A DNA stretch of 64,000 nucleotides from Ignavibacteriota bacterium (GCA_963843525.1 CAWJKM010000002.1:209913-273912), one strand, 5' to 3'. Positions 3,936 to 57,365 are shown, numbered from the stretch's first letter. Notes: generated by a model from the letters alone, not told the origin. Made by a program: numbers and translations.

Positions 3936-4601
3936 ATGTTCATAGGTCATTATGCGGTGGCTCTGGCCGCGAAGAAGGCCACCCCGAAAACATCTCTCGG
4001 GCTGTTGTTCATTGCGGCACAATTCCTTGATTTGCTCTGGCCCCTCCTGGTCGTTTTCGGTGTGGAGCACGTCGGCATCGCACCGGCGACCGATCCATTC
4101 TTACGGCTGAATTTCCTCAGCTATCCTTTCTCCCACAGCTTGTTCGGCGCTTCCGTCTGGGCACTCGCGCTCGGAGGGCTCGTGGTTCTCTTCCGGAGGG
4201 ATATCGCTGAAGGGCTCATCATCGCAGGCTGTGTGATCAGCCATTGGATTCTGGACTTCTTTACGCATCGGCCGGACCTTCCCCTCACGTTTGAAGACCG
4301 GACAAAAGTGGGGCTGGGCCTATGGAATTCTGTTGCATGGACCATGCTGGTAGAGGTGGCGTTGTTTGCCGGCGGCGTGTACCTGTATCTTCAGGTCACA
4401 AAGGCGAAGGACAAGATCGGCGTGTACAGTTTCTGGGGCCTGATCGGCATTCTCTTCGTTATCTACGTCGCCAACATTTTCGGTCCCCCTCCCACCGATG
4501 CATCCCAGATCGGACTCCTTGCGAACGCAGCATGGGTATTTGTCGTGTGGGCGTTTTGGACGGACAGGCATCGCGCGGTAAAGGAGAAGAGTAGGAAGTA
4601 A
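3936..4601 (+). CDS. membrane-bound metal-dependent hydrolase-like protein (YdjM/DUF457-like)
   Basis: Multi-pass membrane protein starting MFIGHYAVALA with His-rich short loops (HWILDFFTHRPD). Confidence 0.4.
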   Translation: MFIGHYAVALAAKKATPKTSLGLLFIAAQFLDLLWPLLVVFGVEHVGIAPATDPFLRLNFLSYPFSHSLFGASVWALALGGLVVLFRRDIAEGLIIAGCVISHWILDFFTHRPDLPLTFEDRTKVGLGLWNSVAWTMLVEVALFAGGVYLYLQVTKAKDKIGVYSFWGLIGILFVIYVANIFGPPPTDASQIGLLANAAWVFVVWAFWTDRHRAVKEKSRK

Positions 4602-4674
4602 GAAGTAAGAAGTAAGAAGAAGGAAGTATGCGGTATGCAGTAGGCAGTAGGCAGAAAGAAGACAGACAGATGCG
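4591..4674 (+). repeat. degenerate heptanucleotide tandem repeat (TANGNAG-type, about 12 units) immediately 3' of the stop codon
   Basis: gtaagaa g|taagaag|taagaag|aaggaag|tatgcgg|tatgcag|taggcag|taggcag|aaagaag|acagaca|gatgcgg; 7-nt periodicity read by eye. Confidence 0.7.
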
Positions 4675-6433: not shown

Positions 6434-6483
6434 CGATGAAGTAAGCCGTATGCCGTAGGCAGTATGCAGATGGCGATAGCAGC
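6434..6483 (+). repeat. heptanucleotide tandem repeat (TANGNAG-type) in the divergent promoter region
   Basis: gatgaag|taagccg|tatgccg|taggcag|tatgcag|atggcga|tagcagc. Confidence 0.6.
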
Positions 6484-6675: not shown

Positions 6676-7869
6676 ATGATGAAATATTTATGCTTGGTAC
6701 TCTTCCTGACCTTCAGCATTACTACCCCCTACGCCCAGGACTCGGCACGATCAAAGGGTTCCACCTCCGGGCATGACGAGAACGCCGGGGCCTTCGGATC
6801 AATTTCCATTTCATCGCAGCCCGGAGAAGCTGATGTCTACCTCGACAACGGAATGGTCGGGAGGACTCCTCTCTCTCTTGCGCGTTTTCCTGCGGGACAT
6901 CACACTCTGCAGGTAACAAAGGACGGTTACTGCGATTTCAACGATTCGCTGGACGTGGTAGCCGGGTCAGAAGTCACCCGCACAGTTCGGCTTGATAGCG
7001 CCTGTGGATTCGTCGTTCGGTCCATTCCTGATAGCGCGGCCGTCTACGTTCAGGACCTCTACATCGGCAAGACTCCGCTGACTATTAATATCCGGAAGCC
7101 AGGATGGGCCACCATCAAAATTTCAAAGCGCGACTACGCCCTGTATCAGAAGAATGTATTGTTGGAACCGGGAAGGACCGCCAATATTGACGCCCAGTTA
7201 TCAGCTCGTTTCGGAACATTCACCCTGGATTCTTATGCCAATGACATGGCGGTGTCCATCGACGGCACGCAGTACGATGGAGCGGCTCTGCACGAACAGA
7301 TGCTGCCGGCCGGCAATCATGACATAGTCATTCATCGCCCAGGTTCCACCGACAGCATTGCGCAATCAATCTTTCTCAGTATCGGTGAACAGAGTCGATG
7401 GGGTGTTCATTTCGGGAGGTTCACCATGAAACATTGCTTTCAATCCATGCTTCTCCCGGGATTGGGCCAGATGACTGACGGCGCGTTGCTCAAGGGTGTG
7501 GTGATGATGGCTGCCTTCGCTGCCTCTACCGCGTTCGCCGTCCTCGAGAGCAACGATTACACGGCGAAGGTTGACGATTTCAACAATGCCTACAACAATT
7601 ATAGACGACTCACCAACGAGGATGCGGCGAAGCAGGCAAGAGACGCATTAATTGACAAGCACAGTAGCCTCAACACCTCATTCAAATTGCGATCGGCTGG
7701 AATCATTGCGGCGTCGTCGATCTACATCTTTTCCGTTGTCGATGCGTTGCTCTTTCACACAAGGGAAAATGTCCTTGAACCCTTGTCATCGGAGGAATTG
7801 GGGCTCATTCACTCTTCCCTTGTTCTCTCCCCATCGGGCGGGCAGTGCACATTGACCATTTTCTTCTGA
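6676..7869 (+). CDS. PEGA domain-containing protein with signal peptide and C-terminal TM segment
   Basis: Repeated PEGA-like modules (ISISSQPGEADVYLDNGMVGRTPLSL; VRSIPDSAAVYVQDLYIGKTPL; FTLDSYANDMAVSIDGTQYDG). Confidence 0.6.
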   Translation: MMKYLCLVLFLTFSITTPYAQDSARSKGSTSGHDENAGAFGSISISSQPGEADVYLDNGMVGRTPLSLARFPAGHHTLQVTKDGYCDFNDSLDVVAGSEVTRTVRLDSACGFVVRSIPDSAAVYVQDLYIGKTPLTINIRKPGWATIKISKRDYALYQKNVLLEPGRTANIDAQLSARFGTFTLDSYANDMAVSIDGTQYDGAALHEQMLPAGNHDIVIHRPGSTDSIAQSIFLSIGEQSRWGVHFGRFTMKHCFQSMLLPGLGQMTDGALLKGVVMMAAFAASTAFAVLESNDYTAKVDDFNNAYNNYRRLTNEDAAKQARDALIDKHSSLNTSFKLRSAGIIAASSIYIFSVVDALLFHTRENVLEPLSSEELGLIHSSLVLSPSGGQCTLTIFF

Positions 7870-7885
7870 GGCTTGAGAGACTACA

Positions 7886-8302
7886 ATGAAAACCAATAAT
7901 CTGTGGAAAATGGCAATTGTCGGGATATCCGCTCTGATGGTCGTTTCATGCAAAAGTCCCGTAGAATTGAATCTCGACAACCCGCATGATCCCGACTCCG
8001 CCCTCTGGGTAGCGACGCGGCCCAGTATTAGCAGGGCGACACTGACGCCGGAGTATACGATCAATCTCCTCTGGATTTACGCGGACAAATATGCAGTATC
8101 GTTCAAGATCGAACGCCGCACGTACGGTACGAATACCTACGCCCTTCTCGGCACCGTAAGCGCTTCACCCGGGGGATACTACTATCAGTACGTGGATTCC
8201 TCTGCGATTCCAGCCGGCCATACTTATGCCTATCGCGTCGGTGTTGTTGGATCGGCGGGCGCAGTGACATATTCCTACGATTTTTTGGTTGATGTGTATT
8301 GA
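7886..8302 (+). CDS. small secreted lipoprotein, hypothetical
   Basis: Signal peptide with lipobox (MVVSCKSP); beta-rich sequence; no match to a known family. Confidence 0.45.
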   Translation: MKTNNLWKMAIVGISALMVVSCKSPVELNLDNPHDPDSALWVATRPSISRATLTPEYTINLLWIYADKYAVSFKIERRTYGTNTYALLGTVSASPGGYYYQYVDSSAIPAGHTYAYRVGVVGSAGAVTYSYDFLVDVY

Positions 8303-21921: not shown

Positions 21922-22011
21922 ACACCCCGCCAGGATGTTAGTTGAAAGGAAAGTCGAGGAAGCGGTGCCCGGTGACCCGTCGCAAGAAACATACAGCGCA
22001 TCTCTCCCGCC

Positions 22012-22100
22012 CACAGCTTTCTGCATACTGCCTACAGCTTTCTGCATACTGCCTACAGCTTACTGCTTACTTTCTTCTTCCTTCTTCATACTTCATACTC
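22012..22100 (-). repeat. heptanucleotide tandem repeat (TANGNAG-type on the minus strand) between the rhomboid and AKR genes
   Basis: Reverse complement: tatgaag|tatgaag|aaggaag|aagaaag|taagcag|taagctg|taggcag|tatgcag|aaagctg|taggcag|tatgcag|aaagctg. Confidence 0.7.
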
Positions 22101-23883: not shown

Positions 23884-23940
23884 TCCGTTTTCCCCCCCTC
23901 TCCCCCTCTCCCCCTCCCCTCATCTCCCTTCTCCCCCCCG
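23884..23940 (+). repeat. C-rich low-complexity tract with about 7-nt periodicity (ctctccc-type heptads)
   Basis: ccccccctctccccctctcccctcccctcatctcccttctccccccc. Confidence 0.5.
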
Positions 23941-24859: not shown

Positions 24860-24955
24860 TCAGTTGACAGTATACAGTAAACGGTATACAGTATACGGTT
24901 AATAGTAATCAGCGGACAGGGAGTACGAATTACGATATATGATGTATGAAGACGG
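24855..24955 (+). repeat. heptanucleotide tandem repeat (TA.ACAG-type) just 3' of the stop codon
   Basis: tagtcag|ttgacag|tatacag|taaacgg|tatacag|tatacgg|ttaatag|taatcag|cggacag|ggagtac|gaattac|gatatat|gatgtat. Confidence 0.6.
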
Positions 24956-34470: not shown

Positions 34471-34517
34471 CCCCACTCGGCATGGCCCCAGTTGGCTGAA
34501 GTGCAATAGGGAAAACT

Positions 34518-34770
34518 ATGGCAGGCTAGGCAACCAGAAATTCCCTCTGCGCAAGGCAAAAACATGGCAGGCTAGGCAACCAGAAATTCCCTCTGCGCAA
34601 AGCAAAATCATGGCAGCCTAGGCAACCAGAAATTCCCCCTGCGCAAGGCAAAAACATGGCAGCCTAGGCAACCAGAAATTCCCTCTGCGCAAAGCAAAAT
34701 CATGGCAGCCTAGGCAACCAGAAATTCCCTCTGCGCAAAGCAAAATCATGGCAGCCTAGGCAACCAGAGG
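34518..34770. repeat. 46-bp direct tandem repeat, 5.5 copies (atggcagSctaggcaaccagaaattccctctgcgcaaRgcaaaaWc)
   Basis: Units begin at 34518, 34564, 34610, 34656, 34702 and 34748 (partial); there are no spacers, so this is not a CRISPR array. Confidence 0.9.
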
Positions 34771-46910: not shown

Positions 46911-47028
46911 CCTGCAGGGGACCCGACTTCATGAAATGTTCTTGATCTCATCGTTCGGAGGCACGGTCCCCCCGACAAATGTACTGTTGGGGGGACTGTC
47001 AATGCTGTTCCCCCGTAGAAGGCTCATC

Positions 47029-49545
47029 ATGAAATCCTGTCTCATCGTCCTTCTTGTCTCGATTCCACTCGTGCTGCTCGCGCAGTCTGAGGGCACGATT
47101 CGCGTGAACCAGCTCGGCTACTCCTGCACCTCGGTAAAGATTGCGGTTGCCCTCCTTCTCGGAAATTTCCCTGGTGTGGATCATTTCGAAGCCTGCGATG
47201 CGGTAACGGATTCGGTGTCGTTCCGGTCGGACCGGATCCAACCGTCGGGCCCCTATGGTTCATTCGGCCGGACGTTGCGTCTCGATTTCTCCAGGTTTGA
47301 ACGGCCGGGCGGCTACTACCTCCAGCTTGGAGGAGTCCGATCGCCGGTGTTCCGCATCGGAGATGACGTGTATGACGGGGCGGCGGACTTCCTGCTGCGC
47401 TATATGCGCGAACAGCGATCCGGGTTCAACCCCTACCTCCGGGATTCATGTCACACTCATGACGGTTATGTCATCTATCATCCGGGACATGATTCGGACC
47501 ATGTCGACGTTGTCGGCGGATGGCACGATGCATCCGATTATCTGCAGTATGTGACGACTTCCGCAACGGCAGTCTACCAGATGCTCTTTGCGTATCAGCA
47601 CCATCCGGAGGTGTTTGGAGACCGTTATCGCGCTGACGGGCTTCCTGGCGCAAACGGGACCCCGGACATCCTGGATGAAGCGGCGTGGGGATTACGCTGG
47701 CTTCTCAAAATGAATCCCGCACCCGGCGTGCTGTACAATCAGATTGCCGATGATCGCGATCACCAGGGATTCCGCCTCCCGACGGAAGACCCGGTGGACT
47801 ATGGCAAAGGGAAGGAGCGTCCGGTGTATTTCTGCACCGGGAAACCCCAGGGGCTCTTTCAGTATGCCAATCGCAGTACGGGCCTTGCTTCCACCGCGGG
47901 CAAGTTCGCTTCGGCATTTGCGCTCGGGGCTGAGCTGTTTGCACTCCGCGACACGGCGTTTGCACGTGTGCTCACAGACCGCGCGCGTTCGGCATATCTC
48001 AGCGGCAAAGAGCATCCCGGAGTCTGTCAGACTGCACCGTGCAAGTCACCTTACTTCTACGAGGAAGACAACTGGGTCGACGATATGGAGCTTGCAGCCG
48101 CGCAGCTTGCGAAGACCACCCGTGATACTGCATATCAGAAAGATGCGCGGTTGTACGGCCGGAAGGAAACCGTGAACCCGTGGATGGGGCAGAATGCCGT
48201 CCGTCACTATCAGTGGTACCCCTTCATCAACCTCGGACATGTGCGGCTCGCCGAGGAAGACCCGCGTGCAAGGAAGGAGTTCATTGCGTATCTCAAAGAA
48301 GGGATCGAGCGGGTCAGACAAAGAGCGGAACATCAACCATTCCGTCTTGGGATCCCTTTCATCTGGTGTTCGAACAATTACGTGAGCGCGTTCCTCACGC
48401 AGCTCCAGTTGTATCGATCGCTCACCGGCGACAACTCGTACGCGGAATTCGAAGCGGCCGCACGCGATTGGCTTTTCGGCTGCAACCCGTGGGGCACAAG
48501 CATGATCATCGGTCTCCCACGCGGAGGTGTGTCGCCAAAGGACCCCCATTCGGCTTTTTCGCACCTCTATGGCTATCACATCGATGGCGGGCTCGTGGAT
48601 GGGCCGGTGAACGCGTCGATCTTCAACGCATTAAAAGGAATCCAGCTCTCACACCCCGATCTGTTCGCGGCATACCAGGGAGATGTTGTCTATCACGACG
48701 ATTGGGGCGACTACTCGTCGAATGAGCCGACGATGGACGGGACGGCCGGTTTGACCATGGCTCTGGCAGCGCTGGAAGATCATGGGAAGTCCGGGATCAA
48801 ACGGAGGAGAATGATATTCGACGAGGGAGGGATCATCCGCGGAGATACGACGGAAAAGGTCATCCATATGGTCTTTTCCGGCCACGAATTTGCCGATGGA
48901 GGAAAAACGATAGCCCGGGTGCTGGAAAGACACCATGGGAAAGCATCGTTTTTCTTCACGGGTGGGTTCTACCGCGACCCAAGGAATTCAACACTCATAC
49001 AGCTTCTCAAACGGGATGGCCAGTACCTTGGGCCGCATTCCGACGGGCATCTTCTGTATGCGCCGTGGGACCGGCGTGATTCGACGCTTCTGACGGAGGC
49101 CCGATTTCAGGAGGATGTCCGGAAGAACTTTGCGGCAATGGCGCGCTGCGGTATACCAGCGGCACACGCCAGATGCTTTCTGCCGCCGTTCGAGTGGTAC
49201 AACCGGACAGTCTCGGACTGGGCGAAACGTCTTGGACTCACATTGATCGACTTCACCCCCGGGACATACTCCAATGCCGACTACACCACCCCTTCGATGG
49301 GAGCGAAGTATCTGTCCAGCGACAGCATTCTCACAAGGATTCTCCGGTACGAATCGACGCACCGATCAGGACTAAACGGCTGTATTCTTCTGATGCACGT
49401 CGGGACGGATCCGGAACGGACGGACAAGCTATACAACCGGATGGACGGGCTTTTGACGGCGCTGGAGCGCAGGGGATACCGGTTCGAGACTATTCGTCGA
49501 CTGGCGTCCACCGCTCCAGAAGCTGCTCCGGGATCCCATCGATGA
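47029..49545 (+). CDS. GH9 family glycoside hydrolase fused to a C-terminal polysaccharide deacetylase (CE4-like) domain
   Basis: CelD_N-like Ig domain (RVNQLGY), GH9 motif GGWHDASDYLQY, (alpha/alpha)6 barrel. C-terminal ~250 aa show the NodB-like pattern (HMVFSGHEFADGG...GKASFFFTGGF...GPHSDGHL). Confidence 0.7.
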   Translation: MKSCLIVLLVSIPLVLLAQSEGTIRVNQLGYSCTSVKIAVALLLGNFPGVDHFEACDAVTDSVSFRSDRIQPSGPYGSFGRTLRLDFSRFERPGGYYLQLGGVRSPVFRIGDDVYDGAADFLLRYMREQRSGFNPYLRDSCHTHDGYVIYHPGHDSDHVDVVGGWHDASDYLQYVTTSATAVYQMLFAYQHHPEVFGDRYRADGLPGANGTPDILDEAAWGLRWLLKMNPAPGVLYNQIADDRDHQGFRLPTEDPVDYGKGKERPVYFCTGKPQGLFQYANRSTGLASTAGKFASAFALGAELFALRDTAFARVLTDRARSAYLSGKEHPGVCQTAPCKSPYFYEEDNWVDDMELAAAQLAKTTRDTAYQKDARLYGRKETVNPWMGQNAVRHYQWYPFINLGHVRLAEEDPRARKEFIAYLKEGIERVRQRAEHQPFRLGIPFIWCSNNYVSAFLTQLQLYRSLTGDNSYAEFEAAARDWLFGCNPWGTSMIIGLPRGGVSPKDPHSAFSHLYGYHIDGGLVDGPVNASIFNALKGIQLSHPDLFAAYQGDVVYHDDWGDYSSNEPTMDGTAGLTMALAALEDHGKSGIKRRRMIFDEGGIIRGDTTEKVIHMVFSGHEFADGGKTIARVLERHHGKASFFFTGGFYRDPRNSTLIQLLKRDGQYLGPHSDGHLLYAPWDRRDSTLLTEARFQEDVRKNFAAMARCGIPAAHARCFLPPFEWYNRTVSDWAKRLGLTLIDFTPGTYSNADYTTPSMGAKYLSSDSILTRILRYESTHRSGLNGCILLMHVGTDPERTDKLYNRMDGLLTALERRGYRFETIRRLASTAPEAAPGSHR

Positions 49546-50524
49546 AGCGCGAAGGCTTCGAAAGGATCATGCCTGTCTCTCGGTCGTAGATGTTGATGGG
49601 GTAGGTTATGAAGAGATGTTCCTTCGCCCGGGTGCACGCGACATACATCAGCCTTCGTTCCTCCTCCAGCGCATCATCATCTGCCGCCGCCCGCGTGACC
49701 GGGAACCTCCCTTCGAGCGCGTACATGACGAACACCGTATTCCACTCCAACCCCTTCGCGCTGTGAATCGTGGAGAGGATGAGCTTCTCATCGTCGTTTC
49801 CCGGGTCGCTGATGTCGGTGACGCTCTCCGTCGCCGGCTCAAGCGCGAGATCGGTCAGGAGCGTCGACAGAGAACGATACCGTTCGGTGATCTGCTGGAA
49901 CATCTCCAGATCCTTTGCCCGCTTGTGATGATCATCGTACCGGAGCTTAAAAATCGGCTCGTAGTATTGGAGGAGTCGTTGGACACGGTCGGCCGGCATA
50001 AGATGATCCGGTGCGGCATCGTTCAACGCCTCGAAGAGCAGGGCGACTTTGTCCGGGTACGTGATCGCATTGCCTTTGACTGCCGGGAGCCGGCTCGATG
50101 CCGGAGTGCCGGGAGCGAGGCGTTTCGAAAGGATGTCGTTGAGAACCTTCTCCGCCGTGCGGGGTCCCACCCCTTCGACCAGGAGGAGGATACGGTTCCA
50201 TGCGACCGCGTCGCGGGGGTTCTCCAGGACGCGAAGATAGGAAACGATATCCTTGATGTGCGCCGTCTCCATGAGCTTCAATCCGCCGTACTTGACGAAG
50301 GGGATGTTTGCTTTCGTGAGTTCCACTTCGAGATCAAACGAGAGATAGCCCGATCGGAAGAGGACGGCGATGTCGGTCAGTGGAATCCCCTCTTCGCGAA
50401 GTTCGAGGACGCGCTGGACGATGAACCGCGACTGGATATTTTCCGTCTGCGTAGTCACAATGGCCGGCAGTTCACCGCCGGTCCTGTGTGTGTACAGCGC
50501 TTTCGAGAACTTGTGCCTGGTCAT
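49490..50524 (-). CDS. UvrD/PcrA-family helicase, C-terminal half (domains 2A/2B, motifs V-VI)
   Basis: ...DIAVLFRSGY...IPFVKYGG...ILSTIHSAKGLEWNTVFV...EEERRLMYVACTRAKEHLFITY. The ATG overlaps the stop of the upstream methyltransferase gene (ATGA). Confidence 0.8.
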   Translation of the reverse strand: MTRHKFSKALYTHRTGGELPAIVTTQTENIQSRFIVQRVLELREEGIPLTDIAVLFRSGYLSFDLEVELTKANIPFVKYGGLKLMETAHIKDIVSYLRVLENPRDAVAWNRILLLVEGVGPRTAEKVLNDILSKRLAPGTPASSRLPAVKGNAITYPDKVALLFEALNDAAPDHLMPADRVQRLLQYYEPIFKLRYDDHHKRAKDLEMFQQITERYRSLSTLLTDLALEPATESVTDISDPGNDDEKLILSTIHSAKGLEWNTVFVMYALEGRFPVTRAAADDDALEEERRLMYVACTRAKEHLFITYPINIYDRETGMILSKPSRFIDGIPEQLLERWTPVDE

Positions 50525-51402
50525 TCTTTTCCCTTGCTCCACGGGTCCTTCGCGGCAGGCGGGAAAGCATCCCGGATTCGGCGCACGTACTCCGGCGTGG
50601 TGCCGCAGCATCCGCCCACGAATATCGCCCCGAGATCGATCCAGCGCCCGGCGAACGCCGCATACTCTTCCGGCTCCACGTCGCACTGCATCGTTGCCTC
50701 CCGTTCCTCGCCCGGCATGCCCACGTTCGCGTACACGCCGAACGGGAGCGATGCGGCCTTCCGCAGCCGTTCGACCGCGCGGTCGATGATACGCGGAGAC
50801 ATACAGTTTATCGAAAGGGCGTACGGGTGATACGGTTCGACGCGGCGGACAGCCTCCTCAAGAGGTTTGCCGTCATACAGGTTCCCGCCGGCATCGCACA
50901 GAAAGCTCACGATGGTCGGAACGCCGGTGGACACGGCAGCTTTACACGCCGCTTCCGCCTCTCTGGACGTCCCCATGGTCTCCAGCAGCAGCATATCCAC
51001 ACCTGCCTCTGCCAATCGTTGTGCGTGGAGGGCGTGTTCCGCGGCCAGCGCATCATCGGGCGGGACACGCTCGGGATGGTAGCAGTCTTCGAGCGGCCCC
51101 ATCGAGCCGGCGATCTTCACTGTTCTTCCGGGGAAGGCATTCCGTGCCTCGTTGGCCAGTGCAACGGCTAATTGCGTCAGCTCGGCGGAGCGGTCTGGGA
51201 GCCCCGCGCGCCGGAACGTCCTGGGTGTCGTGCGGAAAGTGTTGGCGGTGATCAGATCAGCGCCGGCAGCGATGTACTCTTCATGGAGTGTGCGGACCAA
51301 TCCCGGGTCGTCAACCAACGCGTTTGCCGACCAGAGCGGCAGATTCGTGTTCGCGCCTCTTCGCGCGAGCTCGGTCCCGATTGCGCCGTCAAGGATGAAC
51401 AT
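50521..51402 (-). CDS. homocysteine S-methyltransferase domain protein (MmuM/BHMT-like)
   Basis: MFILDGAIGTEL...LWSA..., AGADLITANTF, and zinc-binding GGCCGTTPEY. The track ORF extends to 51453 through a repeat tract; start taken at MFILDG. Confidence 0.8.
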   Translation of the reverse strand: MFILDGAIGTELARRGANTNLPLWSANALVDDPGLVRTLHEEYIAAGADLITANTFRTTPRTFRRAGLPDRSAELTQLAVALANEARNAFPGRTVKIAGSMGPLEDCYHPERVPPDDALAAEHALHAQRLAEAGVDMLLLETMGTSREAEAACKAAVSTGVPTIVSFLCDAGGNLYDGKPLEEAVRRVEPYHPYALSINCMSPRIIDRAVERLRKAASLPFGVYANVGMPGEEREATMQCDVEPEEYAAFAGRWIDLGAIFVGGCCGTTPEYVRRIRDAFPPAAKDPWSKGKE

Positions 51403-51403
51403 C

Positions 51404-51495
51404 GCTCTCTCCCTTTCCCCCCGTCCCCAGTCCCCAAGTCTCCCAGTCCCCAAGTCCCCAAGTCTCCCACTCTCCCCCTCAGTCCCTCGCCCTTC
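51404..51495. repeat. C-rich 7-8-nt periodic repeat (gtcccca / agtctccca units) at the helicase-N / methyltransferase junction
   Basis: gtcccca gtcccca agtctccca gtcccca agtcccca agtctccca ... Confidence 0.6.
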
Positions 51496-52471
51496 GTATG
51501 ATCTCGTTTGTCAAATCCAGTATCGGCTGCGTGCTCCGGTAATTTTCTTCGAGCTTCACGATCTTGCATTCCGTGAATTGATCCGGGAATTCGAGAATAT
51601 TCCGTACCGTCGCGCCGCGGAAGCTGTAGATCGACTGTGCATCGTCTCCCACGACCATGAGGTTGCCATGATGTGAGGCGAGGAGCCGGACAATCTCGGC
51701 TTGAATCAGGTTCGTGTCCTGATATTCATCCACCATGATATATTTGTAGCGCTCACACACCGTCGTCCTGACCGACTCCACATCGCGGAGCAGTTTCCGG
51801 AGATACAGAAGGAGATCGTCGTAGTCCATCAGGTTATGCTGGGACTTGTACTCTTCGAACGCCTTCTGGAGGACGAGGATCTCTTCGAGATAATTCTCGT
51901 AATGGGGGTATTCCTCCTGGAGAATCTCACGCACGGGGCGGACGGTGTTGACGGCTTTGGAGAAGATGTCGTAGAGCGTCTGTTTGCGCGGGAAGCGTTT
52001 CTCCTTCGTGTCGAACTTGAAACGTGTCCGGAGAAGGTTCACGACGTCTTCTGCGTCGCCCTGATCGAGGATACTGAACGACGAATCGAATCCGATGAGC
52101 GACGCGTACTGGCGGAGGAGGAGGTTCGCAAAAGAGTGGAACGTCCCGCCGGCGACGTTTTCGCATCGGGCATCGAGGAGCATGGAGGCGCGGCGGAGCA
52201 TTTCCTGCGCCGCCCGCCGGGTAAACGTCAGGAGCAGAATCGCTTCCGGTTTAACTCCGAGTTCCACAAGATACGCAACCCGGTAGACGATGGTCCTGGT
52301 TTTCCCCGTTCCCGCACCGGCGATAATCAGGTGCGGACCATTGACAGATGACACAGCTTCGTACTGGGCCGGATTGAGCTGGTTCCGGTAGTCGATCTGA
52401 AACGTGTGTTGACCGGGAGACTCCGCAGCCGGTTCGGGGTACGGGGTCTTTTTGAGAAGGTATTTTTTCAT
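51479..52471 (-). CDS. UvrD/PcrA-family helicase, N-terminal half (domains 1A/1B, motifs Q, I-IV)
   Basis: LNPAQYEAV, Walker A AGAGTGKT, Walker B MVDEYQDTN, VGDDAQSIYSFRGA, NYRST. The ORF ends inside the repeat tract a few residues after motif IV. Confidence 0.8.
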   Translation of the reverse strand: MKKYLLKKTPYPEPAAESPGQHTFQIDYRNQLNPAQYEAVSSVNGPHLIIAGAGTGKTRTIVYRVAYLVELGVKPEAILLLTFTRRAAQEMLRRASMLLDARCENVAGGTFHSFANLLLRQYASLIGFDSSFSILDQGDAEDVVNLLRTRFKFDTKEKRFPRKQTLYDIFSKAVNTVRPVREILQEEYPHYENYLEEILVLQKAFEEYKSQHNLMDYDDLLLYLRKLLRDVESVRTTVCERYKYIMVDEYQDTNLIQAEIVRLLASHHGNLMVVGDDAQSIYSFRGATVRNILEFPDQFTECKIVKLEENYRSTQPILDLTNEIIRRARD

Positions 52472-52504: not shown

Positions 52505-53518
52505 TCATAATTTCTTTGCAGGATATTCCTCGAGCGTATCGAGGATCCCCTCGATTGTCTTCGGCGAATTCCCTTCGGCGCGGTTGTTGACGTACACATA
52601 GAGTGTCTTCTTCTCTGCGACGCAGCGATGGACAGCTTCCACGATGCCCTCCCGCAGTTCCGGATTCTCCTCACGGATCCGGTCGTACGGTTTGAATGTC
52701 TGCACCGCCTGTTCATACGTCCTTCCCGGTTTGAGAAGGGCGCGGACGACGGAGAAGTCGGTGGTCAGCACGCCGGACACTTCCAGTTGCCGGATCACGG
52801 GCGGCATACGCGTCCAGTTGTTCAGCACATGGGCGACTCCGTGCGACCGGAGCATCGTGAGATAATTTTCCTTGAGGTACTCTGCATTCCGAATCTCCAC
52901 GGCGTACGAGTACCCCGGGGGGAGCTTTGACAGGAATTCTTCGAGGAGGTCGACGAACCGTTCATCGGTCAAACCCGAGTTGGGATAAAACGTCGAGAAC
53001 TCAAAGATAATCGCTCCGCGCTTGCTGTGGAGTGCGTCGAGCGGGCGAAGGAATGCGTCTTCGAAGAGGCGGGCATTGAGAAAGTCGGGATTTTCCGTGC
53101 CTGCCTGGGCTCCATAACGGGCGATGTTCGGATAGCGGCGTACCGTAATCCGGTCGGTCACTTTCAGGGCAAGGACGAATCCATCCGGCGTATCGTCATG
53201 GATGCGCTCCATTTTCTCGAGGTCGGGAAAGTCGTACAGGGCGAAGTCGGCGCAAACGGTCGGGAAGACCGTGGCATACTCCGCAAGGCACCCCTGTTCG
53301 AAGTTTCGCTGCGAGGAATATTTTTTGTTGTAGACCATCCCTCTCCACCCCGGGTACTTCCAGGAGGAGGACCCGAACAGAATTCCCCGCGAGGTCCATG
53401 CCGCCAGGCGGTTCCGGTTTTTTTCCACATACTCCGAGGAAGGGAACTTCGCTGTTTCGGGAAACAACGGGAGGGTCGCATCCTCCGGTTTTGGCTTCCT
53501 TGTTCTGGGCATAGTCAA
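52505..53518 (-). CDS. DUF72 (YecE-like) family protein
   Basis: ...SSSWKYPGWRGMVY...AEYATVFPTVCADFALYDFP... is typical of DUF72. Confidence 0.6.
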   Translation of the reverse strand: MTMPRTRKPKPEDATLPLFPETAKFPSSEYVEKNRNRLAAWTSRGILFGSSSWKYPGWRGMVYNKKYSSQRNFEQGCLAEYATVFPTVCADFALYDFPDLEKMERIHDDTPDGFVLALKVTDRITVRRYPNIARYGAQAGTENPDFLNARLFEDAFLRPLDALHSKRGAIIFEFSTFYPNSGLTDERFVDLLEEFLSKLPPGYSYAVEIRNAEYLKENYLTMLRSHGVAHVLNNWTRMPPVIRQLEVSGVLTTDFSVVRALLKPGRTYEQAVQTFKPYDRIREENPELREGIVEAVHRCVAEKKTLYVYVNNRAEGNSPKTIEGILDTLEEYPAKKL

Positions 53519-54556: not shown

Positions 54557-55714
54557 ATGACTCTCTTCATCCATCTTGATCTCGATTGCTTCTTCGCCGC
54601 CGTCGAGACCGTCCTGCATCCCGAACTTCGCGGTGTTCCGCTCTGTGTCGGGGGGCAGCGGGGAGGACGGGGGATTGTGACCTGTCCGAATTACGAGGCG
54701 CGCGCGTATGGTGTCCGGACGGCCATGTCGGTGCGTGCGGCGGAACAGCTCCTGCCGCGGGGCGCCGTGTTCCTCCGGGGGAACCATCACCTGTATGGTG
54801 AATATTCACGGCGTGTCATGACGGTTCTGGAATCGTTTACGCCCGAAGTGCGACAACGGAGCATCGATGAAGCGCTGATGGAAGTCGGGGGATGCCTTCA
54901 CTTCTGGGGCCACGATCCGGCCCGCATGGGGCAGGCGATCAAGGACCGGGTCCGTACGGAAACGGGCCTGACGATCTCCGCCGGTGTTGCGCCCAACCCC
55001 CTGTGCGCGAAGATCGCAGCCGGATGGCGTAAACCCGACGGTCTCGTGGTGATCCCTCATGGCGAAGTACAGGAATTCCTTGCGCCGTTGCCGGTGGACG
55101 TTGTGCCCGGAATCGGCAAAAAGACCGCGCCGCGTCTTGCCATGCACGGCATCCGGACAGTGAGTGATCTGATTGCCCGGCGGCCGCCCCGCGAGAGCTG
55201 GCTCGGTTCGCTGCTCCGGGGATTGCTTGATGAAACGGGAAGTTCAGGACGGCACGACGCTGATGCTGTTGAGCACTCGATCTCGCGCGACAGGACATTC
55301 GGTCAGGATACTGCCGACCGGGAACAGATCGAATCGACGCTCTTCCTGCTGACCGAGCGTTGCTGCAAAACCCTCCGGGTCGAGGGGCTCGCGGCATCGA
55401 CGGTGACCCTGAAGGTACGTTTCGCGGATTTCACCACCGTGCAGAAGCAGGAAACGCTGCCCGCGGCGGTGGTGAACGAAGAGCAGATCTTCGCGGCCGT
55501 CCTGCTGCTGCTGGGCGACCTTCTTCCGCCCTGGCGGTTTGTGCGTCTTGTCGGGGTGAAGGTGTCCCATCTTTCCCCGCTGGAAGGACAGCAACTCACA
55601 CTCGATGCCGGGACGTCGGAACGACTGCATGAGCTGCACCGCCGGGTGGATGCGCTGCAGGAACGGTTTGGAGAAGCGAGCGTGCGGTGGGGAAGAGGGG
55701 TGGGGACATTTTAA
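54557..55714 (+). CDS. dinB: DNA polymerase IV (Y-family)
   Basis: Y-family motifs (HLDLDCFFAAVE, SIDEA...) and length about 385 aa. Start taken at MTLFIHLD; the track ORF begins at 54461. Confidence 0.85.
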   Translation: MTLFIHLDLDCFFAAVETVLHPELRGVPLCVGGQRGGRGIVTCPNYEARAYGVRTAMSVRAAEQLLPRGAVFLRGNHHLYGEYSRRVMTVLESFTPEVRQRSIDEALMEVGGCLHFWGHDPARMGQAIKDRVRTETGLTISAGVAPNPLCAKIAAGWRKPDGLVVIPHGEVQEFLAPLPVDVVPGIGKKTAPRLAMHGIRTVSDLIARRPPRESWLGSLLRGLLDETGSSGRHDADAVEHSISRDRTFGQDTADREQIESTLFLLTERCCKTLRVEGLAASTVTLKVRFADFTTVQKQETLPAAVVNEEQIFAAVLLLLGDLLPPWRFVRLVGVKVSHLSPLEGQQLTLDAGTSERLHELHRRVDALQERFGEASVRWGRGVGTF

Positions 55715-55752
55715 ATTTTAGATTTTAGAATTTAGATTTTAGATTTTAGACT
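55710..55752 (+). repeat. TTTAGAT heptanucleotide tandem repeat (about 6 copies) immediately after the dinB stop
   Basis: tttaaat|tttagat|tttagaa|tttagat|tttagat|tttagac. Confidence 0.8.
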
Positions 55753-57002: not shown

Positions 57003-57365
57003 CTGTAGGTCGGGTCGCTGACCCGACCAATTCAGACGGGAGACACTGCATGGCCGGCGGGACGGGTCTGGCGACCCGTCCTACAAATGGACACTCTGTA
57101 GGTCGGGTCGCTGACCCGACCAATTCAGACGGGAGACACTGCGTAGCCGGCGGGACGGGTCTGGCGACCCGTCCTACAAATGGGCACTCTGTAGGTCGGG
57201 TCGCTGACCCGACCATCTCAGACGGGAGACACTGCGTAGCCGGCGGGACGGGTCTGGCGACCCGTCCTACAAATGGACACTCTGTAGGTCGGGTCGCTGA
57301 CCCGACCATCTCAGACGGGAGACACTGCGTAGCCGGCGGGACGGGTCTGGCGACCCGTCCTACAG
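57003..57365. repeat. 93-bp tandem repeat, about 3.9 copies, each unit carrying two perfect 9-bp-stem hairpins (REP/BIME-like)
   Basis: Units begin at 57003, 57096, 57189 and 57283. Hairpins are GGTCGGGTCgctGACCCGACC and GGACGGGTCtggcGACCCGTCC. The array sits directly 5' of a RAYT-like transposase remnant. Confidence 0.85.

Follow-up and report, generated by a model that had tools for sequence, protein, structure and literature searches.

A UvrD/PcrA-type helicase of superfamily 1A (SF1A) is encoded in two pieces in the genome of an Ignavibacteriota bacterium, with a complete homocysteine S-methyltransferase family gene lying between them. The locus belongs to a 64,000-nucleotide stretch of one strand (GCA_963843525.1, CAWJKM010000002.1:209913-273912), hereafter the window, and all coordinates are counted from its first letter. 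We consider it likely, with a probability of about 70%, that this is a naturally split helicase produced by an old gene fission, and that passenger genes entered the gap later, the methyltransferase being the one acquired in this sub-clade. Conservation, intact motifs and ratios of non-synonymous to synonymous substitution (dN/dS) strongly support a genuine, functional two-polypeptide helicase. The block is made up of the following elements:

52471-51479, minus strand: N-terminal helicase half (N-half), open reading frame (ORF) of 330 aa, PF00580 (1.4e-75)
51403-51478, minus strand: spacer of 76 nt between the N-half stop and the methyltransferase start, with an 8-nt tandem repeat
51402-50521, minus strand: homocysteine S-methyltransferase family gene, 293 aa starting with MFILDG, PF02574 (2.3e-68)
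50521-50524, minus strand: ATGA overlap of the methyltransferase stop and the C-half start, read from the sequence
50524-49490, minus strand: C-terminal helicase half (C-half), ORF of 344 aa, PF13361 (2.7e-48)

A first-pass annotation of the window had described a helicase gene bisected by a methyltransferase gene, and ORFs, Pfam matches and the NCBIfam PcrA profile place every element where it had been put; the N-half covers PcrA model positions 3-296 and the C-half 299-638. The two ORFs are separated by 954 nt that include one complete gene. They share one frame (their starts are 1947 nt apart), whereas the methyltransferase, in the same orientation, stands alone in another frame and its translation contains an intact GGCCGT site, again as first described. 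The N-half ends with NEIIRRARD followed by a stop codon, 20 residues past NYRS, and the C-half begins with MTRHKFSKALYT. The ATGA overlap was also correctly noticed: the methyltransferase TGA occupies 50523-50521 and the C-half ATG 50524-50522. This overlap suggests that translation of the C-half is coupled to that of the methyltransferase, and the same -4 overlap is seen at three homologous loci (L001, L004 and L008). A longer C-half ORF with a GTG start (398 aa) was rejected, since relatives have stops directly 5' of the ATG.

The complete set of canonical helicase motifs is retained in translations and in alignments to PcrA, divided over two chains. Motifs Q, I (AGAGTGKT), Ia, Ib, II (DEYQD), III (GDDAQSIY) and IV (NYRST) are found in the N-half, which corresponds to domains 1A and 1B and extends through the first helix of domain 2A. 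Motifs V (LSTIHSAKGLEW; STIHSAKGLE read from the translation) and VI (VACTRAK) are found in the C-half, which corresponds to the remainder of 2A and to 2B. The combination of PF00580 and PF13361 that is expected of an SF1A UvrD/PcrA/Rep-like enzyme is thus present, though on separate polypeptides, and the two RecA-like domains are distributed over two ORFs instead of being joined in one chain. Against solved structures, the N-half aligns to PcrA 11-301 and UvrD 8-298, its residue 326 corresponding to PcrA 301 and UvrD 298. The C-half aligns to PcrA 309-648 and UvrD 303-643, with its residues 5-8 at UvrD 303/PcrA 309. The cut is therefore equivalent to about PcrA residue 303 or UvrD residue 300, after motif IV.

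The summed scores of the N- and C-halves against the equivalog models are 276.9 + 167.9 bits for PcrA (TIGR01073, cut-off 911), 222.6 + 157.4 bits for UvrD (TIGR01075, cut-off 1144) and 220.8 + 129.7 bits for Rep (TIGR01074, cut-off 951). As these are all far under the cut-offs, the protein belongs to a paralogous UvrD-like family and is not PcrA or UvrD itself. An anti-phage defence helicase (Gabija GajB or a DRT-associated protein) was considered and rejected, since the PADLOC matches are generic and the best of them (226.7 bits) scores below PcrA (276.9 bits). No defence partner gene (GajA, reverse transcriptase) is adjacent, the neighbours being DUF72, methyltransferase and GH9 genes.

The first-pass annotation had left room for an assembly artefact, and a repeat is indeed located at one of the junctions. 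A chimeric join has nevertheless a negligible probability, because three independent assemblies are collinear here. The identical N-half protein occurs on a contig of a metagenome-assembled genome (MAG) at NCBI (JBAVEK010000094.1, GCA_049587695.1) and in the Logan assembly of SRR28023524. In both, the called genes are of 330, 293 and 344 aa with the 4-nt overlap, and collinearity with this region extends over 9.3-9.5 kb at 99.8-99.9% identity, with three substitutions and no indel in the N-to-C block. Furthermore, a methyltransferase gene beside a helicase half in the same orientation recurs in 11 related genomes and about 14 metagenome contigs, and the gene order is N-half, methyltransferase, C-half wherever a contig covers both sides.

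Comparison with orthologous loci, which had been put forward as one way to check the nature of the split, revealed that the break is widespread. The best 120 N-half homologues (73-100% identity) are all 327-364 aa long and the best 120 C-half homologues all 341-374 aa, and half-length homologues number in the hundreds. Outside the split group, representatives at 50% clustering are mostly single-chain proteins of 640-750 aa. We classified 80 loci from species-representative genomes, 78 of which could be determined. The gene is split at the same residue (within 1) in 45 of these 78 loci and intact in the other 33:

Intact single ORF: 33 loci (Omnitrophota, Planctomycetes-labelled MAGs, Kryptonium, Kapaibacterium, Chlorobiota, one Ignavibacterium and L022)
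Split, halves -4 to 316 nt apart: 23 loci
Split with a methyltransferase between the halves: 9 loci
N-half and methyltransferase, C-half off the contig or distant: 2 loci
Split by other genes: 6 loci
N-half ending at the same place, C-half absent within 2-6 kb: 5 loci
Undetermined because of contig ends: 2 loci

Locus L056, first classed as split because of an anchoring artefact, is intact. Short representatives outside the clade do not add further split genes, as they are contig-end fragments or frameshifted reads, with the exception of P0127. This 341-aa protein, 50% identical to the N-half, ends about 19 residues after its NELIDQA motif, and may reflect a frameshift error or else an independent split of this family at the equivalent position in a different lineage.

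The junction alignment leaves no ambiguity. Intact relatives read NEIIxRAREKYTKVLYT and the break falls between E and K (RARE/KYTK). The present locus has RARD and a stop, then MTRH followed by KFSK, so that about four residues were gained and none lost. The initial estimate that about five residues were unaccounted for is thus reversed: none is missing and about four are added relative to intact relatives. The clade of this locus shows RAR[DE], a stop, and M[TK]RHK[FY] at the restart. In the short-gap clade, the N-half ends with ILKRG and a variable tail of 3-30 aa before its stop, and the C-half starts with MYYKELYT.

To place the break in a structure, we used the intact clade member P0391 (663 aa, 67% identical to the fused halves of this locus). 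Its AlphaFold (AF2) model has a mean predicted local distance difference test score of 82 and a predicted template modelling (TM) score of 0.75, and superposes on DNA-bound UvrD and PcrA with TM-scores of 0.80-0.82. The four-subdomain fold (1A, 1B, 2A, 2B) is therefore seen in the intact orthologue rather than in the two chains of this locus. In P0391, NYRS corresponds to residues 307-310 and the break point to E327/K328; DSSP assigns a helix to 312-323, coil to 324-343 and a strand to 344-348. The cut thus falls four residues past the motif IV helix, within a long coil, so that the second RecA-like domain receives its first helix from the N-chain. In the light of this model, an interlock through the donated 2A helix could aid association of the two chains. 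The Protein Data Bank entry 2PJR lists PcrA chains of 548 + 95 aa and entry 1QHH chains of 167 + 273 + 169 aa; these chain lists are consistent with a PcrA that stays assembled when its backbone is broken. One mixed alignment of the fused halves with half-length homologues was discarded, as MAFFT had placed N-halves on the C-half (20-24% identity).

Gene interruption in a MAG normally points to a pseudogene, and the two ORFs could in principle be decaying remnants of a helicase inactivated by the insertion. We regard this as extremely improbable given the substitution pattern, the absence of internal stops in the 45 species-level split loci and the hundreds of half-length homologues. Pairwise dN/dS values calculated by the Nei-Gojobori method, with dS near saturation, are 0.01-0.09 for both halves in each pair tested, and dN is nearly equal between the two halves of every pair. 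The intact orthologues L071 and L074 give 0.05-0.07, matching the split halves. The methyltransferase itself is at 0.10-0.16.

The constraint persists where the halves are no longer adjacent (0.067 for L002/L003 and 0.093 for L081/L034). The halves are unlinked at L002, L003, L011, L013, L019, L043/L081 and L094; the first five of these have an N-half with no C-half nearby, and the distant partner was located for L043/L081 only. In the MAG GCA_040756745.1 (L043/L081, contig JBFLYO010000040.1), the C-half lies 13.8 kb downstream of the N-half and the methyltransferase, on the same contig and strand. The interval contains a fucosidase-like gene, an RND efflux operon and thrA-thrB-thrC on the opposite strand; the halves must therefore act in trans. 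Aspartate-family amino-acid genes are found there between the methyltransferase and the C-half, with thrA directly adjoining the latter, possibly by coincidence. Among metagenome contigs, L094 carries a methyltransferase-C-half pair without N-half and L091 a methyltransferase alone.

This unlinking, and the presence of separate start and stop codons for the two halves, could also indicate that the halves are now independent proteins with separate roles, for instance an ATPase or DNA binder for the N-half and an accessory factor for the C-half. We find this reading quite improbable, because dN is near-identical between the halves in every pair and because the motifs of a single composite ATP site have all been kept, shared out between the chains. 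In SF1 helicases, motif VI of domain 2A is required for ATP hydrolysis.

The origin of the split is a separate question. In a neighbour-joining tree of the concatenated halves (100 bootstraps), one clade unites all split forms with 100% support. The methyltransferase-bearing loci form one sub-clade inside it, also with 100% support. In a scan of metagenome contigs, methyltransferase orthologues of at least 50% identity are almost always located between or beside helicase halves, whereas homologues of at most 47% identity occur in unrelated contexts. This distribution indicates that the methyltransferase was captured once. Since it is limited to one nested sub-clade, the split is older and the methyltransferase a later passenger, not the cause. 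The same break is present in 34 species-level loci that have no methyltransferase beside the N-half or between the halves. Of the two parts of the initial proposal, the genuine split helicase is upheld by conservation, motifs and dN/dS, and its creation by insertion of the methyltransferase is not supported in view of these 34 loci. As we see it, the methyltransferase is itself a functional gene, which did not cause the split.

The PF02574 match is indeed end to end (profile positions 2-282 of 283), so that the gene is complete at 293 aa as first reported. Zinc-binding cysteines in this family lie in INC and GGCC motifs, and both are present here (ALSINCMSP, VGGCCGTTP). The MmuM assignment did not hold beyond the family level: the score against the MmuM equivalog NF007020 is 184.5 bits, below the cut-off of 215, and the methyl donor is therefore not assigned.

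Other relatives carry different genes at the junction. Five loci (L014, L015, L023, L026 and L038) contain a homologous lipoprotein-like gene of 264-294 aa with a weak EEP match, L012 has two small ORFs between the halves, and in L011, L013 and L019 a pyridoxamine-phosphate oxidase gene (pdxH, PNPOx) follows the N-half. One of the small ORFs of L012, a 189-aa HExxH membrane-protein gene (7340-7909), has its homologue (47% identity) 5' of the N-half in L014 (5496-5888); these positions suggest local gene shuffling into the junction.

An insertion could still have come first. According to this scenario, the methyltransferase or an earlier EEP-like lipoprotein gene landed in an intact helicase gene and thereby created the split, the methyltransferase being either the original insert or a replacement of it, and short-gap relatives are deletion derivatives. 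Several observations weigh in this direction and against an old fission with later passengers. The EEP-like insert is homologous on two separate, non-sister branches. Insert-bearing forms share one junction style across branches, E and a stop, then M-x-R-H-K-Y; in clade A, L012, L023 and L026, the last codon of the N-half is precisely the ancestral E codon, and M-x-R-H precedes the ancestral KY at the start of the C-half. In most methyltransferase loci, both borders show stop/start overlaps (TGATG or TAATG, and ATGA). Short-gap forms could thus derive from insert-bearing ones by deletion. A separate difficulty for an old fission is the intact L022 lineage (P0391-P0396, 66-67% identity), which branches inside the split clade with 84-92% bootstrap, by neighbour-joining only; such a position requires either a re-fusion or several parallel fissions. 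One fission and one re-fusion are the most parsimonious account of this lineage, and several parallel fissions at one residue a less economical one.

On balance, an insertion at the origin seems to us improbable, though not negligible. The methyltransferase is confined to one nested sub-clade and cannot be the original cause, the 23 short-gap loci are explicable without an insert, and a mobile-element gene, a recombinase and a flanking direct repeat are all absent here. A repeat scan found no direct repeats bracketing both junctions; the only repeat touching one of them (D5) was rejected as due to chance, its partner being inside the methyltransferase gene.

One may also ask if the cut is more than a passive operon junction, namely a site at which genes are captured repeatedly, or else a "perforation line" in the structure. 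The first version is favoured by the variety of cargo, of which there are at least three unrelated sets (methyltransferase, EEP-like lipoprotein gene and the two small ORFs), with precise stop/start overlaps. The second would follow if the L022 lineage were ancestrally intact, in which case the same residue would have been cut independently at least four times. This broader reading is tentative and we hold it to be rather unlikely; if true, the enzyme would be an unusually plastic, functionally conserved two-piece motor, with passengers exploiting translational coupling to its halves.

Finally, a full-length helicase might still be made if the halves were rejoined at the RNA or protein level, through split inteins, ribosomal bypass, frameshifting or RNA splicing. 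There is a precedent in "fractured genes", where split inteins flank a free-standing endonuclease gene (Dassa et al. 2009, PMC2677866), and where the host gene is likewise in two ORFs around an unrelated gene; in some short-gap relatives the helicase ORFs overlap by 1-4 nt. In contrast to fractured genes, the junction studied here has no intein halves, so that trans-splicing is not possible: the RARD-stop and MTRHK ends leave no space for them. Pfam detected no intein, endonuclease or recombinase domain in this block or in the inserts of relatives. Moreover, a complete 882-nt gene in a different frame separates the halves, they are 13.8 kb apart in one genome, and no Rfam family (riboswitch, intron or other RNA) matches in the block, with one sub-threshold match elsewhere. 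Rejoining is hence hardly credible.

We therefore favour an old fission, which in one Ignavibacteriota lineage would have cut the helicase gene in the coil a few residues past motif IV. The N-polypeptide carries the ATP- and DNA-binding motifs Q to IV and the C-polypeptide motifs V and VI, including the arginine finger; we infer that non-covalent association of the chains restores the ATPase cleft and yields one working helicase. The gap would have acted as a permissive operon junction that received different passenger genes in each sub-lineage. At the present locus, DUF72, N-half, methyltransferase and C-half would form one transcription unit, in which the ATGA overlap would couple the C-half translationally to the methyltransferase.

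Two neighbouring genes complete the picture:

52505-53518, minus strand: DUF72 gene (PF01904, 3.8e-31), 33 nt upstream of the N-half start
46936-49545, plus strand: GH9/polysaccharide deacetylase gene, 869 aa

The DUF72 gene is found 5' of the N-half at L001-L004, L006, L008-L010, L034, L043 and L086-L089, and its position is syntenic across the whole methyltransferase sub-clade. The DUF72 gene and the N-half probably belong to one transcription unit; predicted promoters and terminators inside the block are not more numerous than in shuffled controls. On the other side, the 3' ends of the C-half and of the GH9/polysaccharide deacetylase gene overlap convergently by 56 nt (49490-49545), an overlap also present in gene calls at L082 and L083.

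The spacer that follows the N-half contains about six to eight copies of an 8-nt, CCCCAAGT-like unit (51417-51480), and Tandem Repeats Finder reports tandem arrays at 51408-51476. The N-half had been described as stopping inside a heptad-like repeat: its stop is indeed at the repeat, which has a period of 8 nt and begins at the stop codon. On the sense strand the spacer is G-rich (GGGGACTT-like), with ten runs of at least three G. Its minimum free energy as RNA is -30.2 kcal/mol when G-quadruplexes are allowed, versus -16.2 kcal/mol without them. A G-quadruplex is thus predicted in the spacer RNA, and any regulatory role for it is speculation. Among relatives, a repeat-filled spacer of about 76 nt after the N-half is seen only at this locus and L001, most others having an overlap of the N-half stop and the methyltransferase start.

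The resemblance of this repeat to other intergenic repeats of the window, pointed out previously, is borne out by tandem arrays elsewhere. Intergenic arrays with a 7-8 nt period occur at 4590-4661, 6436-6469, 22009-22099, 23894-23937, 24867-24899 and 55708-55750, in addition to 51408-51480, and are mostly of the AGTAnGn or AGTATAC type. The L001 spacer holds the unit of the array at 22009, AGCTTTCTGCATACT. Similar heptamers fill the spacers between the helicase halves at L016, L017, L021, L024, L028, L029 and L033, often followed by an inverted copy, with which a hairpin could form. We take the window heptamers to resemble the cyanobacterial short tandemly repeated repetitive (STRR) heptamers such as CCCCAGT. 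Two longer repeats were also noted. A 46-nt unit is repeated 5.6 times with 95% identity at 34512-34768, apparently in an intergenic region, and is not CRISPR-like because unique spacers are absent. At 57003-57364, a 93-nt unit is repeated 3.9 times with 97% identity, each unit containing two GC-rich palindromes, GGTCGGGTCGCTGACCCGACC and GGGACGGGTCTGGCGACCCGTCC.

UvrD, PcrA and Rep are single chains of about 650-730 aa with the same Pfam domains and motifs Q and I-VI as those found here on two polypeptides. The sigK skin, nifD and fdxN elements are known cases in which genes are interrupted by inserted DNA and restored by programmed DNA rearrangement. The helicase locus resembles these elements in that inserted DNA of like orientation interrupts a gene. 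It differs from them in having neither recombinase nor bordering repeats, in the conserved start and stop codons of each half, and in an "insert" that ranges from 0 nt to 13.8 kb in relatives. An excisable element was rejected on the same grounds, in the absence of a recombinase ORF and of bordering direct repeats.

A closer parallel is the nrdA gene of phage Aeh1, which is split by the homing endonuclease gene mobE and whose two polypeptides reassemble non-covalently (Crona et al. 2011, PMC3045599). As in that case, the gene of an essential-type enzyme is in two parts with a gene between them and a few new residues at the cut ends, and we infer a similar reassembly. Unlike Aeh1, the locus is chromosomal, belongs to free-living bacteria and has been kept across a large clade, with about four added residues (MTRH). 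The intervening gene is a metabolic methyltransferase, replaced in relatives by other ordinary genes or by nothing, and not a homing endonuclease: the inserts match PF02574, an EEP-like lipoprotein or PNPOx, or have no Pfam match. Reverse gyrase, which is naturally split in Nanoarchaeum equitans and Methanopyrus kandleri (PMC8185306), is likewise a helicase-containing enzyme encoded as two polypeptides. In N. equitans the split lies between the helicase and topoisomerase modules, whereas the cut described here runs through the motor, inside the RecA-like domain 2A, which means that two chains must together form the ATP site. A full-text literature search retrieved no report of a naturally split UvrD-family helicase, which is absence of evidence only.

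The locus is a new example of a known phenomenon, fissioned genes. It offers a natural, evolutionarily validated two-chain UvrD/PcrA-type motor, with which one could study how the domains of SF1 helicases communicate and design split-helicase tools. It also calls for caution in annotation, as hundreds of half-length ORFs are labelled "ATP-dependent helicase" or can be mistaken for pseudogenes. With respect to genome evolution, it illustrates a fission kept across a large clade, genes gained later at the junction, halves that became unlinked and one likely re-fusion.

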